From Eubacteriales bacterium (GTDB lineage Bacteria > Bacillota > Clostridia > Oscillospirales > CAG-272): a stretch of DNA of 54,315 bases. Positions 22,259-44,071 of this stretch are shown here, in pieces; position 1 is the stretch's first letter; each line of letters opens with the position of its first letter. Under the pieces are notes generated by a model. It was not told where the DNA came from. It saw only the letters and a program-made list of their open reading frames with translations, and did no database searches. A program made the position numbers and the translations under genes. The stretch covers positions 1-54,315 of the forward strand of contig JAZODX010000152.1 in assembly GCA_045597265.1 (NCBI GenBank). Direction: 5' to 3'.

Positions 22259-22351
22259 GTCTTATTTTGATTCAATTTTCATTCCTGTATGGTGCGGTTT
22301 GCTATTATATGCGCTGAAAAATATTTCTGACGAGCCGCAAAAATGCAAGGT

Positions 22352-22619
22352 TCCCTTGTGTAAAGGGAGCTGTCACCGAAGGTGACTGAGGGATTGTAAA
22401 CGAAACGGTTAGCAGAGCACAAAATTTTTGCATTACAGCGATATGTCAGGCCGGTAACAATCCCTCCGTCACGGCTTGCGCCGTGCCACCTCCCTTTACA
22501 CAAGGGAGGCTTACGAAAGTGGTGCATCAAGGGACCCCTTGTGTAAAGAGAGGCTTGCGAAAGAGCCGTATCAAAGGCTCCCTTGTGTAAAGGGAGCTGT
22601 CACCGAAGGTGACTGAGGG
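22352..22619. repeat. Repeat family B cluster: a 41-bp perfect direct repeat pair plus inverted partial copies
   Basis: TCCCTTGTGTAAAGGGAGCTGTCACCGAAGGTGACTGAGGG occurs at 22352-22392 and again at 22579-22619. Between them lie an inverted CCTCCCTTTACACAAGGGAGG and the module CCGTCACGGCTTGCGCCGTGCCACCTCC (22466-22493). Confidence 0.85.
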
Positions 22620-22968
22620 TGCATTCTACGAGATGGTCTATATATTCGCAAACACCTTGAAAATTATTATGTATTTGTGTGTTTGATATTCTGATTACTG
22701 TCAAGCCGTATTCTTCAAGAAATGCGGTACGTTCTTTGTCGTAAGCCTTTCCTTCTTCGGTGTAGTGCCCCGATCCGTCAAGCTCAATGACGAGCTTGGC
22801 TTTGGCACAGTAGAAATCGGCAATATATTTGCCGAGCACCTTTTGGCGAGAAAAACGGACGGGATATTTGTGCAAAAAGTCATACCAAAGGTGCTGTTCT
22901 TCTTTGGTCATACTATTACGCAATATTTTGGCAGTCGGAACAATATTTTTATTGTGCTTTCTCTGCAT
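22600..22968 (-). CDS. DUF559 (Vsr/restriction-endonuclease-like fold) domain protein
   Basis: 122 aa with DUF559-type motifs (RFSRQKVLGKYIADFYC, IELDGSGH). The last roughly 7 codons and the stop lie inside the family B repeat. Confidence 0.75.
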   Translation of the reverse strand: MQRKHNKNIVPTAKILRNSMTKEEQHLWYDFLHKYPVRFSRQKVLGKYIADFYCAKAKLVIELDGSGHYTEEGKAYDKERTAFLEEYGLTVIRISNTQIHNNFQGVCEYIDHLVECTLSHLR

Positions 22969-36198: not shown

Positions 36199-37053
36199 AT
36201 GGCACAGTTTACTAACCAGGCCCAGCTGACCTATCGCGGCGGTGCGGTCAACTCAAACGTCGCCGTCGGTGAGGTGCTGGAGGTACTTGATGCGACGAAG
36301 ACGGTACTCAGCGGAAGCTATGCACGGGGGGATGATCTGACCTACGTGATCTCGCTGGTCAATTCGGGGCAGACGCCACTCAGCGGCGTAACGGTGAGCG
36401 ATGACCTCGGTGCGTATACCTTCTCGACGCAAGCGGTCTATCCGCTTGCGTACGTGGACGGCTCTCTGCGCGTTTTTGCCAACGGCGTGCTCGCCGCGGC
36501 CCCCGCTGTTAACCCCGGGCCGCCCCTCGTCGTCTCGGGGCTGACCGTTCCCGCCGAGGGAAATCTGCTCCTCGTTTACGAGGCTCGCGTAACCGCCTTT
36601 GCGTCGCTTGCGGAAACGGGATCGATCACCAATACCGCCACCGTCACGGGCGGCGGTATCCTGACCCCCATCGAGGTCAGCGCATCGGTATCCGCCGCGG
36701 CAGCGCCCGAGCTGACCGTTACCAAGACCGTCACGCCGGTGCCCGTTGCCGAGAACGGACGGCTGACCTACACCTTTATCATCCAGAATACGGGTAACCG
36801 CGCGGCGGTCACAACCGACGATATCAGCCTTACCGATGATTTCGATCCGATTCTGAGCGATCTCGCCGTCACCCTCGACGGTGTCGCGCTGAGTGAACCC
36901 GCCGATTACACGTATGATGAGACGATTGGGCGTTTCGCCACCGTGCCGGGACGGATCACCGTTCCCGCTGCCACCTACACGCAGGACCCCGCCGGCGGCG
37001 CGTGGATCATCACGCCCGGTACTGCCCGCCTCGTCATCACCGGAACGGTTTGA
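36199..37053 (+). CDS. DUF11 (conserved repeat domain) protein without a signal peptide
   Basis: There are two DUF11-like Ig-fold repeats (TKTV..GDDLTYVISLVNSGQTPLSGVTVSDDLG, and TVTKTVTPVPVAENGRLTYTFIIQNTGN). The N-terminus MAQFTNQAQLTY is not hydrophobic. Confidence 0.7.
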   Translation: MAQFTNQAQLTYRGGAVNSNVAVGEVLEVLDATKTVLSGSYARGDDLTYVISLVNSGQTPLSGVTVSDDLGAYTFSTQAVYPLAYVDGSLRVFANGVLAAAPAVNPGPPLVVSGLTVPAEGNLLLVYEARVTAFASLAETGSITNTATVTGGGILTPIEVSASVSAAAAPELTVTKTVTPVPVAENGRLTYTFIIQNTGNRAAVTTDDISLTDDFDPILSDLAVTLDGVALSEPADYTYDETIGRFATVPGRITVPAATYTQDPAGGAWIITPGTARLVITGTV

Positions 37054-37062
37054 GCAAAATGT

Positions 37063-37465
37063 GAAAAAGGGACTGCCGCCATAGGGTGATGTCCTTAGCG
37101 GAGAATTTTACACTTTTTGAAAAGTGCGAGCATCGCATTTGACTAGTCAAACGCAAATGGGCTAAGCCCAAACCCATATTACAAGCAGAAAGAGAGAACA
37201 GACGGTTCATAGCCGAAAGTTCTCTCTTTTCTGTTGGTATAAAGTGATATTCTTTGCTGACGCAAAGAGTGATATTGTCGCACAACGACAGTGATATTGA
37301 AGCCTTACGGCTTCAGTGATATTCTATTCGCCTATAAACTTGCGAAGCAAATATCACTCGGCGTAAGCCGAATATCACTGCGTAGCAATAGAACTCGCCG
37401 AAGGCGAATAGAGTTAGCGTGATACTCCGTTAAGAGTATCACGCTATGGCGGCAGTCCCTTTTTC
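37063..37465. repeat. Non-coding element bounded by inverted repeats, containing a 9-mer/mini-hairpin array (MITE-like or a structured RNA)
   Basis: The 22-bp perfect inverted repeat is GAAAAAGGGACTGCCGCCATAG (37063-37084) against CTATGGCGGCAGTCCCTTTTTC (37444-37465). AGTGATATT occurs four times in direct orientation and AATATCACT twice, each pair separated by a short perfect hairpin. I see no credible ORF. Confidence 0.8.
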
Positions 37466-37499
37466 GCATATGCAAGCCCGAGCCGTGCGCACGGGGCGC

Positions 37500-38033
37500 T
37501 TACCACAGGCGGATGCGCGGACGAAGCTTAAAGAGATAGAACAAAATCAAGCGGGAGAGCGCGATATCGTAGATCACGAAAACCGCGTTGGCAATCAGGA
37601 ATACCGCCGCCGTAAAGCCGAGGTCGGTGTCGGGCAGACCGAGGACGACGGTGCTGAGCAGGATGAGAAGCATCAGCGCGGTGTTAAAAAAGGAAAACTT
37701 CAATATCCAGGCGAGAATGTAATGCCGCCGTTCGAAAATTGCCTTCATCATCGGGTAGATGCCCGCAAAAAGCAGATAGACCAGAGCAGCAAATTTGGTC
37801 GGCAGAATCAGAAGCGAGAGGGCTGACGTTACCCCCCAGAGCATCCAGGGGAAAGCGCCGCCGACCTCGAGGACGGCGAACACCACGAGAAGGGACGCCA
37901 TCGCCGCGGTTGTCAGGTCGAGGACCTCGATGACCGCACCGAGCCAGAGAATCACGACGCTGAGCGCCGCGAGCACGGCGCCGAGCGACAGCCGACGCGT
38001 CCGTGCGGAAATTCGATTTTTTTCGTTGCGCAT
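37500..38033 (-). CDS. Multi-pass membrane protein of unknown function
   Basis: I take the ATG at 38033 as the start (MRNEKNRISARTRR...). There are about 5 hydrophobic helices, and it is the last gene of the DUF5685/J-domain operon. Confidence 0.7.
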   Translation of the reverse strand: MRNEKNRISARTRRLSLGAVLAALSVVILWLGAVIEVLDLTTAAMASLLVVFAVLEVGGAFPWMLWGVTSALSLLILPTKFAALVYLLFAGIYPMMKAIFERRHYILAWILKFSFFNTALMLLILLSTVVLGLPDTDLGFTAAVFLIANAVFVIYDIALSRLILFYLFKLRPRIRLW

Positions 38034-38056
38034 ATCCGTTACCTCGCAAATACCGC

Positions 38057-38683
38057 TCAGCAGGGGAGCAGATTGCCGCCCATGCATTCACAGCAGCAGT
38101 CGGCGCAAAGAAGACCGGTGCAGAGGTCGCAGCCCGAGCAGGTCTGGCCGTTCATCCCGGTGGAATAGGGGCGGCCGAAGGACTGCGTGCGCTGGCGAAG
38201 CTGATCCCGTGCCTGCGCGTATTCGTAATTGGAGGGATCAAGGGTGCAGGCGGTATCAAAGGATTGCTGTGCGTCAAAGGTCCAGCCGCGGCGGAGCTGA
38301 ATACAGCCCTGCAGGAAGTGCCACTCGGCAGAGCGGTCTGCTACGGGGACGGCCTGCAGAATGCGCGCCGCCTCAAGAATACTGCCCTGATTGATCAGCA
38401 CGCGAACCCGCGCGTAGGTGGGTGCGCCCGAGCCCGAGTAGCTTCCCCCTGCGGTTGAGCCGCCGTAAGTGCTGCCCGCGTTGCCCGTCCCCGCCTCGCG
38501 CTGACGCTGAATCTCGTCGTACGCGGCGTTGATCTCTTTCATTTTTTCCTCCGCAACGTCGGCCAGATCGCTGTCCCGATATTTATCGGGATGATACTTG
38601 CGCGCCAGATTGCGGTAGGCCTTTTTGATTTCTTCGTCGGATGCGTCTCGGCTTACGCCAAGCGTCTTATAAGGATCGGTCAT
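38057..38683 (-). CDS. J-domain protein with a C-terminal cysteine string
   Basis: The N-terminal J domain reads [30 protein letters not shown]. The last 28 residues contain 9 cysteines ([27 protein letters not shown]). Confidence 0.85.
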
Positions 38684-39780: not shown

Positions 39781-39856
39781 GCTGCTATGGCTCAGTTGGT
39801 AGAGCACATCCTTGGTAAGGATGAGGTCATCAGTTCGACTCTGATTAGCAGCTCCA
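39781..39856 (+). tRNA. tRNA-Thr, anticodon GGT, with encoded CCA
   Basis: GCTGCTATGGCTCAGTTGGTAGAGCACATCCTTGGTAAGGATGAGGTCATCAGTTCGACTCTGATTAGCAGCTCCA. The cloverleaf is complete and the anticodon loop is TT-GGT-AA. Confidence 0.9.
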
Positions 39857-39974: not shown

Positions 39975-40118
39975 AAAGGGAGTTCGCCTGATTATTCCTT
40001 AAAATTTGCAAAATGGGAATAATAAATTGACGTTTTTTTGAAAAATATATTGGCATTGTTCCTAAAATTTGATATAATGTATCCGGTGAGATTGTATTTG
40101 GCCCGGGAGGATTCGGTT

Positions 40119-41024
40119 ATGGAATATATTAAGGTATCAAAAGCTGCTGAAAAATGGGGGATTTCCGCGCGGCGCGTTCGCGCTTTGTGTGCGGCGGGCA
40201 AGATTGACGGTGTAATCCGCCAAGGAAGTCTGTATATGATTCCTGCTTCTGTTGCAAAGCCTGCGGATGGGAGAAAGGGCAGAGCGGGGTACCTGCATGA
40301 CCTGGAAAAGAAGCGTGATCTTCTTTCGGCAAGGCCTCTCCTGACGCCCGGAGAGGTCGAAAGACTTGCCCATGAGTTTATGGTTGATTTTACCTACAAC
40401 TCCAATGCGATCGAGGGGAATACGCTCACTTTGAAAGAAACTGCATTGGCTCTTGAAGGAATGACAATCGACCAAAAGCCTTTGAAGGATCACCTTGAAG
40501 CCGTAGGGCATCGGGATGCCTTCCTCTATGTTCAAGAGATGGCAAAAAACGAAGTGGAGCTTTCGGAATATGTGATCAAGAATATCCACGCGCTTGTGTT
40601 GATGAACCGTCCCGAAGATAAGGGGCAGTATCGTCGTATTCCCGTTCGCATTATGGGGGCATATACCGAGCCCGTTCAGCCGTATCTGATTGCACCTAAG
40701 ATGAACGAATTACTTGTTGCCAACGAGGAGCGCAAACGCAGAATGACGACGGTTGAGCGCGTTGCCCGTTTTCATCTTGAATTTGAGGGGATACACCCCT
40801 TCGTTGATGGAAACGGCAGAACGGGGCGCCTGATTCTCAATCTCGAATTGATTCGCAACGGATTCCCGCCAATCAACGTAAAATTTACCGATCGCAAGCG
40901 TTACTACGATGCTTTTGATGCCTTCTATCGTGACGGTGACGCAGGAAAAATGATAGACTTGATTGCAGAATACATGGACAAAAGACTTGACGAATATTTG
41001 AATGTGTTGGATGATAACCAATAA
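40119..41024 (+). CDS. Fic family protein (AMPylase-type) with an N-terminal HTH
   Basis: The Fic motif HPFVDGNGRTGR is present, together with an inhibitory-helix-like SNAIEG upstream and an N-terminal excisionase/MerR-like HTH (ISARRVRALCAAGKI). The ATG at 40119 follows a GGGAGG site. Confidence 0.85.
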   Translation: MEYIKVSKAAEKWGISARRVRALCAAGKIDGVIRQGSLYMIPASVAKPADGRKGRAGYLHDLEKKRDLLSARPLLTPGEVERLAHEFMVDFTYNSNAIEGNTLTLKETALALEGMTIDQKPLKDHLEAVGHRDAFLYVQEMAKNEVELSEYVIKNIHALVLMNRPEDKGQYRRIPVRIMGAYTEPVQPYLIAPKMNELLVANEERKRRMTTVERVARFHLEFEGIHPFVDGNGRTGRLILNLELIRNGFPPINVKFTDRKRYYDAFDAFYRDGDAGKMIDLIAEYMDKRLDEYLNVLDDNQ

Positions 41025-43807: not shown

Positions 43808-44071
43808 GTGACATTTCAGTAAGCCTTCTCCAGCGGAGAAGATGCCCCGAAGGGGCGGATGAGGAGAGCATCCTCAGTACTGCACATATGGTCAGCGTAC
43901 TGCACAAAAGCAACAAACGAAAGAGTCTATGCAAAACAAAATCATAGAGATCATATGTATACCACGTTGATCTCCTCATCCGTCACGGCTTCGCCGTGCC
44001 ACCTCCGAGATTGCTAGCAATCTCGTGGCGCTTGCGCCCATCTTCGCTGGGGAAGGCTAATTGTGCGTCAC
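43808..44071. repeat. Cluster of family C and family B repeat modules
   Basis: 43808-43875 is an inverted copy of 8275-8345. 43980-44006 (CCGTCACGGCTTCGCCGTGCCACCTCC) matches 22466-22493 with one indel. About 44038-44071 repeats the CTGGGGAAGGCTAA module. Confidence 0.75.

Follow-up and report, generated by a model that had tools for sequence, protein, structure and literature searches.

The window analysed here, a stretch of 54,315 nt that spans contig JAZODX010000152.1 of a Eubacteriales bacterium (GTDB: Clostridia; Oscillospirales; CAG-272), holds one copy of a 403-bp element at positions 37063-37465, in the gap between two convergent genes. As context outside the element, the upstream gene (36199-37053, + strand) encodes a DUF11/DUF7507 surface-type protein and the downstream gene (37500-38087, - strand) a small membrane protein, the last of a conserved DUF5685-DnaJ-membrane protein operon; the flanking open reading frames stop at 37053 (+) and 37500 (-), respectively. 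The core of the element (37241-37416, about 175 nt) consists of two hairpin arrays of the Gut-1 type that are inverted to each other. The element is very probably a long-form member of a Gut-1 family of interspersed structured elements located at the ends of transcription units. An original prediction made from the letters of the window had described its repeats and hairpins and offered a mobile element, a structured RNA and an iteron-like array as explanations; the core belongs to an already catalogued motif, which was not recognised there.

The forward array (37243-37323; all features of the element are given on the + strand unless stated otherwise) contains four copies of the 9-mer AGTGATATT at 37243, 37268, 37290 and 37315 (spacings of 25, 22 and 25 bp), with one hairpin between each pair of them (37252-37267, 37277-37289 and 37299-37314). 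The inverted array (37340-37407) carries the same 9-mer on the - strand, reading AATATCACT at 37350-37358 and 37371-37379, together with the hairpins TTGC-GAA-GCAA (37340-37350), TCGGC-GTAA-GCCGA (37358-37371) and TGC-GTA-GCA (37379-37387). Absent from the original prediction were a degenerate inverted motif, AATAGAACT (37387-37395), and a fourth hairpin, TCGCCGAAGGCGA (TCGCC-GAA-GGCGA, 37395-37407). Also new relative to that prediction is helix P, which encloses the inverted array and whose 5' strand TCTATTCGCCT (37323-37333) pairs with the 3' strand AGGCGAATAGA (37402-37412); the latter contains AATAGA, another degenerate inverted motif. The predicted set of four direct and two inverted 9-mers is real and conspicuous: six matches occur in the window, all of them inside the element, compared with 0.18 expected, and none of 100 shuffles reached six. 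Across both arrays the spacings are 25, 22, 25, 35, 21 and 16 bp, and helical phase is not kept.

The two ends of the element form an outer closing helix. Its 5' arm GAAAAAGGGACTGCCGCCATAG (37063-37084), which consists of a G, five A's (37064-37068) and GGGACTGCCGCCATAG, is the exact 22-nt reverse complement of the 3' arm at 37444-37465, composed of CTATGGCGGCAGTCCC plus a T-run (37460-37464). Just as proposed, this terminal repeat is exact over 22 bp, and within the window the 22-mer is found only at the two ends of the element, with a chance expectation of none. The claim of weaker complementarity further inward holds for the window copy, in which the inverted repeat reaches 48 nt at 85% complementarity (37059-37106 / 37422-37469), but not for every relative. 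The subterminal segment GGTGATGTCCTTAGCGGAG (37085-37103), comprising the motif-like heptamer GTGATGT and a CTTAGCGGAG box, is kept across the long-form copies (alignment A2); its partial complementarity to 37424-37443, however, cannot translate into pairing at the related loci L209 and L201, where the loop of the 3' hairpin is flipped.

Four further structures lie between the subterminal segment and the forward array. The hairpin CACTTT-TTGA-AAAGTG (37111-37126) belongs to the extra domain found in long forms only and is also present in the closest relatives L172, L209 and L225. It is followed by a palindrome, GCATTTGACT/AGTCAAACGC (37135-37154), which is kept as CGCATTTGnnnnCAAATGCG in the long forms with one pair switching from UA to AU (consensus columns 83-102), and by the hairpin TGGGC-TAA-GCCCA (37158-37170) with a subsequent AACCC, kept as a GGGC..GCCCAAACCC block in alignment A2. 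The purine/pyrimidine hairpin CAGAAAGAGAGAAC ... GTTCTCTCTTTTCTG (37186-37233; stem 37189-37199 / 37219-37229) is predicted in the consensus fold of 11 long forms (columns 157-205). On the other side of the core, the 13-bp hairpin TAGCGTGATACTC-CGTTAA-GAGTATCACGCTA (37415-37446), with a GTGATAC/GTATCAC motif pair as its stem, is kept in the long forms and shows changes on both sides at three pairs. The hairpins between the 9-mers, the palindrome, the 37186-37233 stem and the right-hand hairpin had all been predicted and are all present, the last with 13 bp. Folding of the single strands yields -186.1 kcal/mol (z -14.9) and -184.9 kcal/mol (z -13.5), each about 80 kcal/mol more stable than shuffled sequence. 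An 82-aa open reading frame on the - strand (37037-37285) is unlikely to be coding, as relatives contain non-triplet indels, including a 20-nt insertion in L172.

At the Rfam gathering thresholds the window contains two tRNAs and nothing else. A permissive scan of the element returned Gut-1 (RF01706) alone at E < 0.1, with no match to ROOL, GOLLD, HEARO, OLE or raiA; the hits lie at 37346-37416 on the - strand (46.5 bits, E 6e-8) and at 37242-37327 on the + strand (40.2 bits, E 2.5e-6), and the window copy is therefore under the Gut-1 gathering cut-off of 50 bits on both arrays. Across 20 related loci, 17 Gut-1 matches exceed this cut-off with 50.3-74 bits, on either array. One example is MT835815, a phage-collection record from human faeces, which is 80% identical to the window over 98 nt and whose copy (L001) adjoins a tRNA gene and scores 59.1 bits. 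Sequence of this type is the 2010 Gut-1 seed member BAAZ01025322, with the order tRNA, terminator, array. The seed also includes a long-form copy, BAAZ01000095, which is enclosed by GGGGCUGCCG...CGGCAGCCCC and located directly after a stop codon.

The element shares with Gut-1 the gut microbiome habitat and the short variable hairpins between conserved GUGAAAU or GUGAUAU linkers; at least three short covarying variable hairpins with a conserved GUGAWAU linker are present. The Rfam model comprises one 77-nt array, whereas the unit described here has two inverted arrays and helix P in about 175 nt, and the long form of about 400 nt with its closing terminator stem lies outside the model. Gut-1 was reported from human gut sequences by Weinberg et al. 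2010 (PMC2864571), who rated it as likely RNA on the basis of covariation and assigned it no function, genomic context or copy number. The motif as such is hence already catalogued, but the two-array unit and the long form appear to be undescribed in that paper, and the tie to terminators and tRNA-operon ends, the dispersed multi-copy nature and the lack of strand bias likewise appear to be new in comparison with it.

A scan of one genome per species for three copies of GTGATATT documented at least 120 loci, nearly all of them in metagenome-assembled genomes (MAGs) of gut or rumen Clostridia, with carriers listed among Oscillospiraceae, Acutalibacteraceae, Christensenellaceae, Ruminococcus and Lachnospiraceae. 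The element is clearly not a single-copy sequence without homologs, an outcome that the original prediction had named as fatal to its mobile-element and RNA explanations. Among the matches listed, 61 arrays have four motifs at spacings of about 25/22/25, and 45 copies have the common core of about 175 nt; the inverted motifs typically follow about 36 nt after the forward array, with spacings of about 21 and 16. The conserved layout consists of four GTGATAT motifs with three covarying hairpins, then three to four ATATCAC motifs with four hairpins, and the inverted array is enclosed by the helix TATTCGCC/GGCGAATA (also given as TCTATTCGCC/GGCGAATAGA; consensus TnTATTCGCC / GGCGAATAnA). Within an element the motif copies do not differ from one another, and between subfamilies they change jointly (GTGATAT versus GTGAAAT). 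Read on the + strand, the forward-array hairpins have UUCG/UUC-type loops and those of the inverted array GNRA/GAA-type loops.

Covariation of the core was assessed in a 42-sequence alignment with 500 shuffles and slid controls. Paired cells amount to 91.2% compared with 75.0% in shuffles, and both partners have changed at 28 of the 43 pairs. At 0.369, the covariation score contrasts with 0.102 for shuffled alignments, none of the 500 reached it, and the slid controls range from 0.03 to 0.09; the mini-hairpins, whose covariation the original prediction had raised as a check, covary strongly. Changes on both sides affect 18 of 19 pairs in the three forward-array hairpins, and four of five pairs covary in the middle hairpin of the inverted array. 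Helix P has one covarying position (AU 19 / CG 16 / UA 6, with one exception in the 42 sequences), which largely tracks three clades and so reflects few independent events. A possible pairing between forward and inverted 9-mers, which are 92.5% complementary, showed no covariation in this alignment, and the mismatches are uncompensated.

The family comes in three forms. In the short form the core leads directly into an A-run/T-run terminator that is common to a convergent tRNA gene 30-38 nt away, an arrangement observed at ten loci, and an outward-facing promoter abuts the first array on the side opposite the terminator. One short-form copy (L149:2046-2853) ends an rRNA operon (23S, tRNA-Lys, tRNA-Glu, 5S, tRNA-Asn) and shares its terminator. 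The long form, to which the window copy belongs, adds about 160 nt of hairpins, the 13-bp hairpin and the closing helix to the core. The array-only form lies after stop codons or within operons, in sense orientation. At L162, a classical copy of the GTGAAAT type repeats the two-array layout, with a promoter and then a gene behind it.

Several copies depart from these forms in details of their own. In Acutalibacteraceae (L133, L149, two copies each in L162 and L233) the conserved unit runs beyond the array and spans an outward promoter (TTGCAC-17-TATACT), a ribosome-binding site (AGGCGGTGA) and the start codon (ATG) of small genes for membrane proteins or lipoproteins that are otherwise unrelated; these copies appear to supply the expression signals of the adjoining genes. 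The unrelated copies L189 and L224 carry an extra hairpin of about 35 nt (GGGGTCCCCACAAAACCGTGGCTTTTGTGGGG...) in the CGCC/GGCG loop of the last inverted-array hairpin. At L183:1958-2189 an array-only copy is tandemly duplicated with a 154-bp unit; since the leftmost copy starts at ATATT without GTG and the array ends on a complete GTGATATT, the junctions of the duplication lie inside the 9-mer.

The original prediction had pictured the outer repeat as the stem of a bidirectional terminator with an expanded loop, and the relatives bear this out. At least 20 long forms are located exactly between convergent genes, and all 11 full-length long forms that were tested (391-412 nt) possess an end-to-end helix flanked by A- and T-runs, with helix sequences that are unrelated among them. 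The observed helix energy was reached by none of 300 shuffles in ten of the 11 long forms and by 4 of 300 in the eleventh. The window copy resembles a bidirectional intrinsic terminator in its A-run, GC-rich stem and T-run between convergent gene ends (five A's and five T's). It differs in that the loop, usually a few nucleotides, is replaced by 359 nt of conserved, independently folding sequence; the short loop of intrinsic terminators is lacking, and a terminator scan with loops of 3-8 nt does not call the outer stem. In a related genome a plain bidirectional terminator (AAAAACAGCCCTGAACC...GGTTCAGGGCTCTTTTT) is found downstream of the orthologous gene, and the closing stem stands where such a terminator would be expected.

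The origin of the stem is ambiguous. Identity of 91-92% between the window copy and L172, L209 and L225 extends only from position 19-22 to 382-385; because it is confined to the interior, the 22-bp stem of the window is not common to these relatives, as would be expected had the target site contributed the stem. The pair L209 and L225, in turn, share their outer stem (AAAAGCACACC versus AAAAGGACACC, compensated on the other arm) between unrelated flanks, which would fit a stem belonging to the unit. The loop of the 13-bp hairpin occurs in both orientations among copies that are about 90% identical (CGTTAA versus TTAACG, CGATAA versus TTATCG). This flip is a DNA-level event that abolishes the inner long-range pairing. 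Relative to the window (37415-37446) it was observed in L209:3139-3172, L201, L175 and L241 and corresponds to at least two flips.

Copies that are 85-97% identical show no similarity in their 8-kb surroundings, neither at the DNA level nor in translated comparison; correspondingly, the 6-kb flank of the window copy has no similarity to those of L172, L209 and L225. Several MAGs give two loci, and some loci harbor two copies 0.4-2.7 kb apart. Of the 120 listed copies, at least 27 are no more than about 250 nt away from a true contig end, and the break often falls within the element itself; by a rough estimate, about three would be expected by chance. The proposal of a mobile element is supported to the extent that the family is multi-copy, occupies non-homologous sites and breaks assemblies, but the hallmarks of a classical miniature inverted-repeat transposable element were not found. 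Target-site duplications are absent at the window copy, L172, L209 and L225, where the flanks are inverted rather than direct repeats. Conserved outermost terminal repeats are lacking as well, as the outermost inverted repeat differs from copy to copy. The DUF5685-DnaJ-membrane protein operon is kept in relatives (66-69% protein identity) without the element, and relatives of L172 (GAPDH 92-94% identical) lack it upstream of gap; the proposed search for empty sites thus recovered an element-free orthologous operon end, but at both the operon and gap the far flank differs, so that neither is a strict empty site.

The immediate neighbours do not reveal a partner. The 125 neighbour proteins fall into 121 Pfam families of ordinary, diverse, housekeeping chromosomal character, which led us to reject a conserved partner gene. 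No transposase, integrase, HUH or Y1 family is common to two or more of them. Exact-protein look-ups with four window proteins gave no match, no match was obtained in a plasmid collection, and no copy has its two arrays separated by a gene. A strict scan for three copies of GTGATATT in 2.9 million viral contigs retrieved one true member (L012), and an association with phages was rejected on this ground. The corresponding scan with three copies of GTGATAT was discarded, as most of what it returned was unrelated: GTGATATCA operator arrays located between divergently transcribed genes of phages, and repeats within the coding sequence of giant viruses. The one unusual neighbour that recurs is a small gene for a 23S rRNA-intervening-sequence four-helix-bundle protein (PF05635), situated beside four of about 60 loci (L001:4603-4968 on the - strand, L128, L181 and L231); it starts 30-60 nt from the first array, and its own promoter abuts the array.

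Whether the fold acts in RNA or in single-stranded DNA cannot be told from pair counts or folding energies, because the stems consist almost entirely of Watson-Crick pairs and the two strands fold with equal stability. The 247 unique hairpins contain 1276 Watson-Crick, 8 G-T and 9 A-C pairs; with G-T and A-C so balanced among the 1299 stem pairs counted, there is no strand asymmetry, and the forward array as read on the + strand has its mirror image in the inverted array as read on the - strand. The structured-RNA explanation of the original prediction is supported in part, by the covariation of the hairpins and the identity of the core with Gut-1; the equal folding of both strands speaks against a one-strand RNA. 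In favour of RNA are the covarying hairpins, the loop types of the two arrays, the terminators at fixed positions and the array-only copies that are co-oriented with the surrounding mRNAs. We found no conserved promoter upstream of the first array and no sigma-70 promoter in the extra domain of the long forms. A promoter-like site inside the core, formed in the window by the third motif, the third hairpin and the fourth motif (37296-37324; TTGAAG, 17 nt, TG-A-TATTCT; 8/12), is putative and serves as a lead only. Its match is stronger in short-form relatives (TTGAAA-17-TG.TATTAT; 10/12 in L162), and among the 42 copies a TTGnnn -35 is present in 30, a spacer of 16-18 nt in 40 and a TG-extended TATTnT in all.

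Taking the family assignment and the function as one joint proposition, we tentatively favour the reading that the element acts in cis as RNA, namely as a stable two-way 3'-end module, and we give it somewhat less than an even chance. According to this proposal, the element would be transcribed from both sides as the 3' end of two convergent units, the closing stem and U-run would stop RNA polymerase arriving from either direction, and the packed hairpins would shield the 3' ends by blocking 3' exonucleases. Having to work in both transcripts, the element would retain Watson-Crick stems on either strand. Since the 9-mers are identical within each element and change together between subfamilies, they may be recognition sites for one trans-acting factor, either a protein or the complementary 9-mers of other copies. 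New copies would arise at other unit boundaries. The presence of the outer stem in 11 of 11 long forms despite unrelated sequences, the location between convergent genes, the ten short forms that abut the terminator common to a convergent tRNA gene, and the sense orientation of array-only copies after stop codons or in operons all support a role in cis.

Several observations weigh against it. Arms that are 359 nt apart are far outside the range of normal intrinsic terminators, and an outer stem of this kind might form too late to stop the polymerase. With a terminator on one side and an outward promoter on the other, the short forms would be transcribed by read-through only, which weakens the case for RNA. 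A DNA-level palindrome would account at least equally well for the flipped loop and for the fact that G-U pairs are nearly absent. The factor that binds the 9-mers is putative, the strand and expression of the element are predictions, and the window copy scores below the Rfam cut-off.

The main rival, improbable in our view but of appreciable weight, is a selfish DNA repeat of the REP/REPIN kind, whose hairpins would form in single-stranded DNA, for instance on the lagging-strand template. The 9-mers would then be recognition or nicking sites for a single-strand-specific enzyme of the HUH or Y1 type, encoded by one gene per genome, which copies the element to new intergenic sites, preferably at or in terminator palindromes; effects on RNA would be by-products. 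REP, BIME and REPIN sequences of Proteobacteria are multi-copy extragenic palindromes that lie after genes and between convergent genes. They resemble the present family in the absence of target-site duplications, the maintenance of stem complementarity and the alternating orientation, and extragenic multi-copy palindromic units at gene ends are what we observe. Such an origin would account for the assemblies broken at multiple non-homologous sites among copies of 85-97% identity, the restriction of copies to transcription-unit ends, the two arrays that mirror each other on opposite strands, and the lack of strand asymmetry in pair counts and folding energy. It would also suit the flipped 3' hairpin loop, the motif copies that change in concert between subfamilies, and the wholly different outer stems of the window and L172 around interiors that are 91% identical, as if the stem came from the target site. 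GTGATATT is similar to CTTG/ATATT, the site at which Rep proteins of phiX174 and of the pC194 type nick DNA, and GCGAAGC is known to form a very stable mini-hairpin in DNA; both are leads rather than tests.

The comparison with REP sequences has its limits, however. REP units combine a conserved palindrome with variable context, whereas here the palindromes vary, differing by position within the element, and the 9-nt linkers are conserved; moreover, the composite is much larger, the hosts are Clostridia, and no RAYT-type gene is known to be linked to the Gut-1 family. Neither HUH, Y1 nor any other transposase is among the families common to at least two of the 125 neighbours, and neither the orthologous operon nor the gap relatives yielded an empty site with the same flanks. 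The stem shared by L209 and L225 with one compensated change between unrelated flanks indicates that the stem can travel, and the co-orientation of array-only operon copies with their genes suggests a role as RNA. BOX, ERIC, Correia and bcr repeats are likewise modular, highly structured, multi-copy intergenic and co-transcribed, and can supply terminators or promoters, but they have no sequence relationship to the element, and the terminal inverted repeats and target duplications that characterise Correia and some bcr repeats were not seen in this family.

In its more specific version, which we also consider improbable and of slightly lighter weight, Gut-1, rather than being a 77-nt small RNA, would be one of the two arms of a strand-symmetric interspersed repeat that settles at the ends of transcription units and is spread as single-stranded DNA by a hypothetical enzyme. 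If true, the family would represent a Firmicute counterpart of the REP/RAYT system, with an enzyme that recognises GTG/ATATT 9-mers beside hairpins. Its sites would be the terminators of tRNA and rRNA operons and the convergent-gene junctions of uncultured gut Clostridia, and the long form would be a copy lodged inside the stem of a bidirectional terminator.

An independent trans-acting small RNA gene, as Gut-1 is labelled in Rfam, is doubtful. Its transcript would start upstream of the first array or at the internal promoter-like site and end at the terminator. The 9-mers in it, being single-stranded, would either sequester an RNA-binding protein by titration or base-pair with AGTGATATT arrays of complementary sequence within mRNA 3' untranslated regions. 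The rating of the motif as likely RNA on covariation (PMC2864571), the UUCG/UUC and GNRA/GAA loops of the two arrays on the + strand, and the short-form T-run terminator at a fixed position after the inverted array are in accordance with this explanation, as are the complementary array-only copies in mRNAs and the partly conserved internal site (TTGAAA-17-TG.TATTAT in L162). The start of transcription is its difficulty: a conserved promoter upstream of the first array is lacking, the array in Rfam's orientation follows a terminator with no room for a promoter, and the internal site is weak in the window (TTGAAG / TATTCT), where a transcript beginning at it would not include the covarying helix P position. 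For the closing stem of the window to form, transcription would have to begin within the upstream gene. There are essentially no G-U pairs, and a dispersed, multi-copy and strand-symmetric family is unusual for a small RNA gene. ROOL, GOLLD, HEARO, OLE and raiA RNAs resemble the element in their size of about 400 nt, many helices, frequent tRNA neighbourhood and enigmatic role; the element differs from them in being built of repeated simple modules, strand-symmetric and nearly absent from viral contigs.

A duplex DNA array of protein-binding sites, iteron- or enhancer-like and acting in the control of an adjacent promoter, in replication or in partition, is very unlikely. Identical 9-bp sites in direct and inverted orientation at roughly two-turn spacing, their concerted change between subfamilies, and, in short and classical forms, a conserved outward promoter whose -35 is only 6-8 bp away from the end of the second array are the features that recall it. 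But duplex binding has no need of spacers that are covarying palindromes, the spacings lose helical phase, and the window copy sits between two gene ends without an adjacent promoter. The iteron-like array of the original prediction fails in particular: only 9 bp are conserved per unit, whereas the iterons of a plasmid or phage origin are 17-22 bp long, tandemly repeated and accompanied by an AT-rich unwinding region and a rep gene; neither a rep nor a par gene is present, no plasmid matched, and phage context is limited to one phage-collection record and one true match in 2.9 million viral contigs.

Least probable, and only a slim chance, is a classical miniature inverted-repeat transposable element (MITE), a DDE-transposon derivative with several transposase-binding sites that inserted into the loop of a bidirectional terminator: dispersed copies, 9-mers in both orientations, a subterminal inverted segment kept among long forms (GTGATGTYCTTA.CGGAG / CTCCG.TAAGAGTATCAC) and the differing outer stems of the window and L172 recall such an element, but no copy examined has a direct target-site duplication, the conserved segment is not at the true end of the unit (as L209 and L225 share the outer stem too), has its right half flipped in some copies and is lacking in short forms, and neither a transposase among the 125 neighbours nor a gene between the arrays was found. 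CRISPR-like, retron, type III toxin-antitoxin and integrase arm-site explanations were dropped for want of a cognate gene and given that the supposed spacers are conserved palindromes.

Two other features of the window deserve mention. A second, unrelated repeat family is represented by GGTTCCCTTGTGTAAAGGGAGCTGTCACCGAAGGTGACTGAGGG at 22349-22396 and 22580-22620, about 230 bp apart, and by related CCGTCACGGCTTGCGCCGTGCCACCTCCCTTTACACAAGGGAGG units at 22466-22510 and 43976-44006; similar units adjoin Gut-1 copies in L138 and L159. Moreover, the G+C content falls from about 60% to some 46% after a tRNA-Thr(GGT) gene (39781-39856), which is also followed by a Fic/HTH gene (40038-41024), and this region may be the edge of an integrated island.

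Gut-1 has been in Rfam since 2010 as a gut-only candidate small RNA without context or function. The 77-nt motif in the catalogue corresponds to only one of the arms of a conserved unit with two arrays, which has short, long and array-only forms. This unit is dispersed and multi-copy, and it is tied to terminators at the ends of tRNA operons, of at least one rRNA operon and of convergent genes. Copies that score just under the Rfam cut-off can pass for invertible segments or MITEs, and the family breaks metagenome assemblies. In view of the two-array unit, its dispersal, its association with terminators and the lack of strand bias, it is again in question whether the Gut-1 family is an RNA at all.

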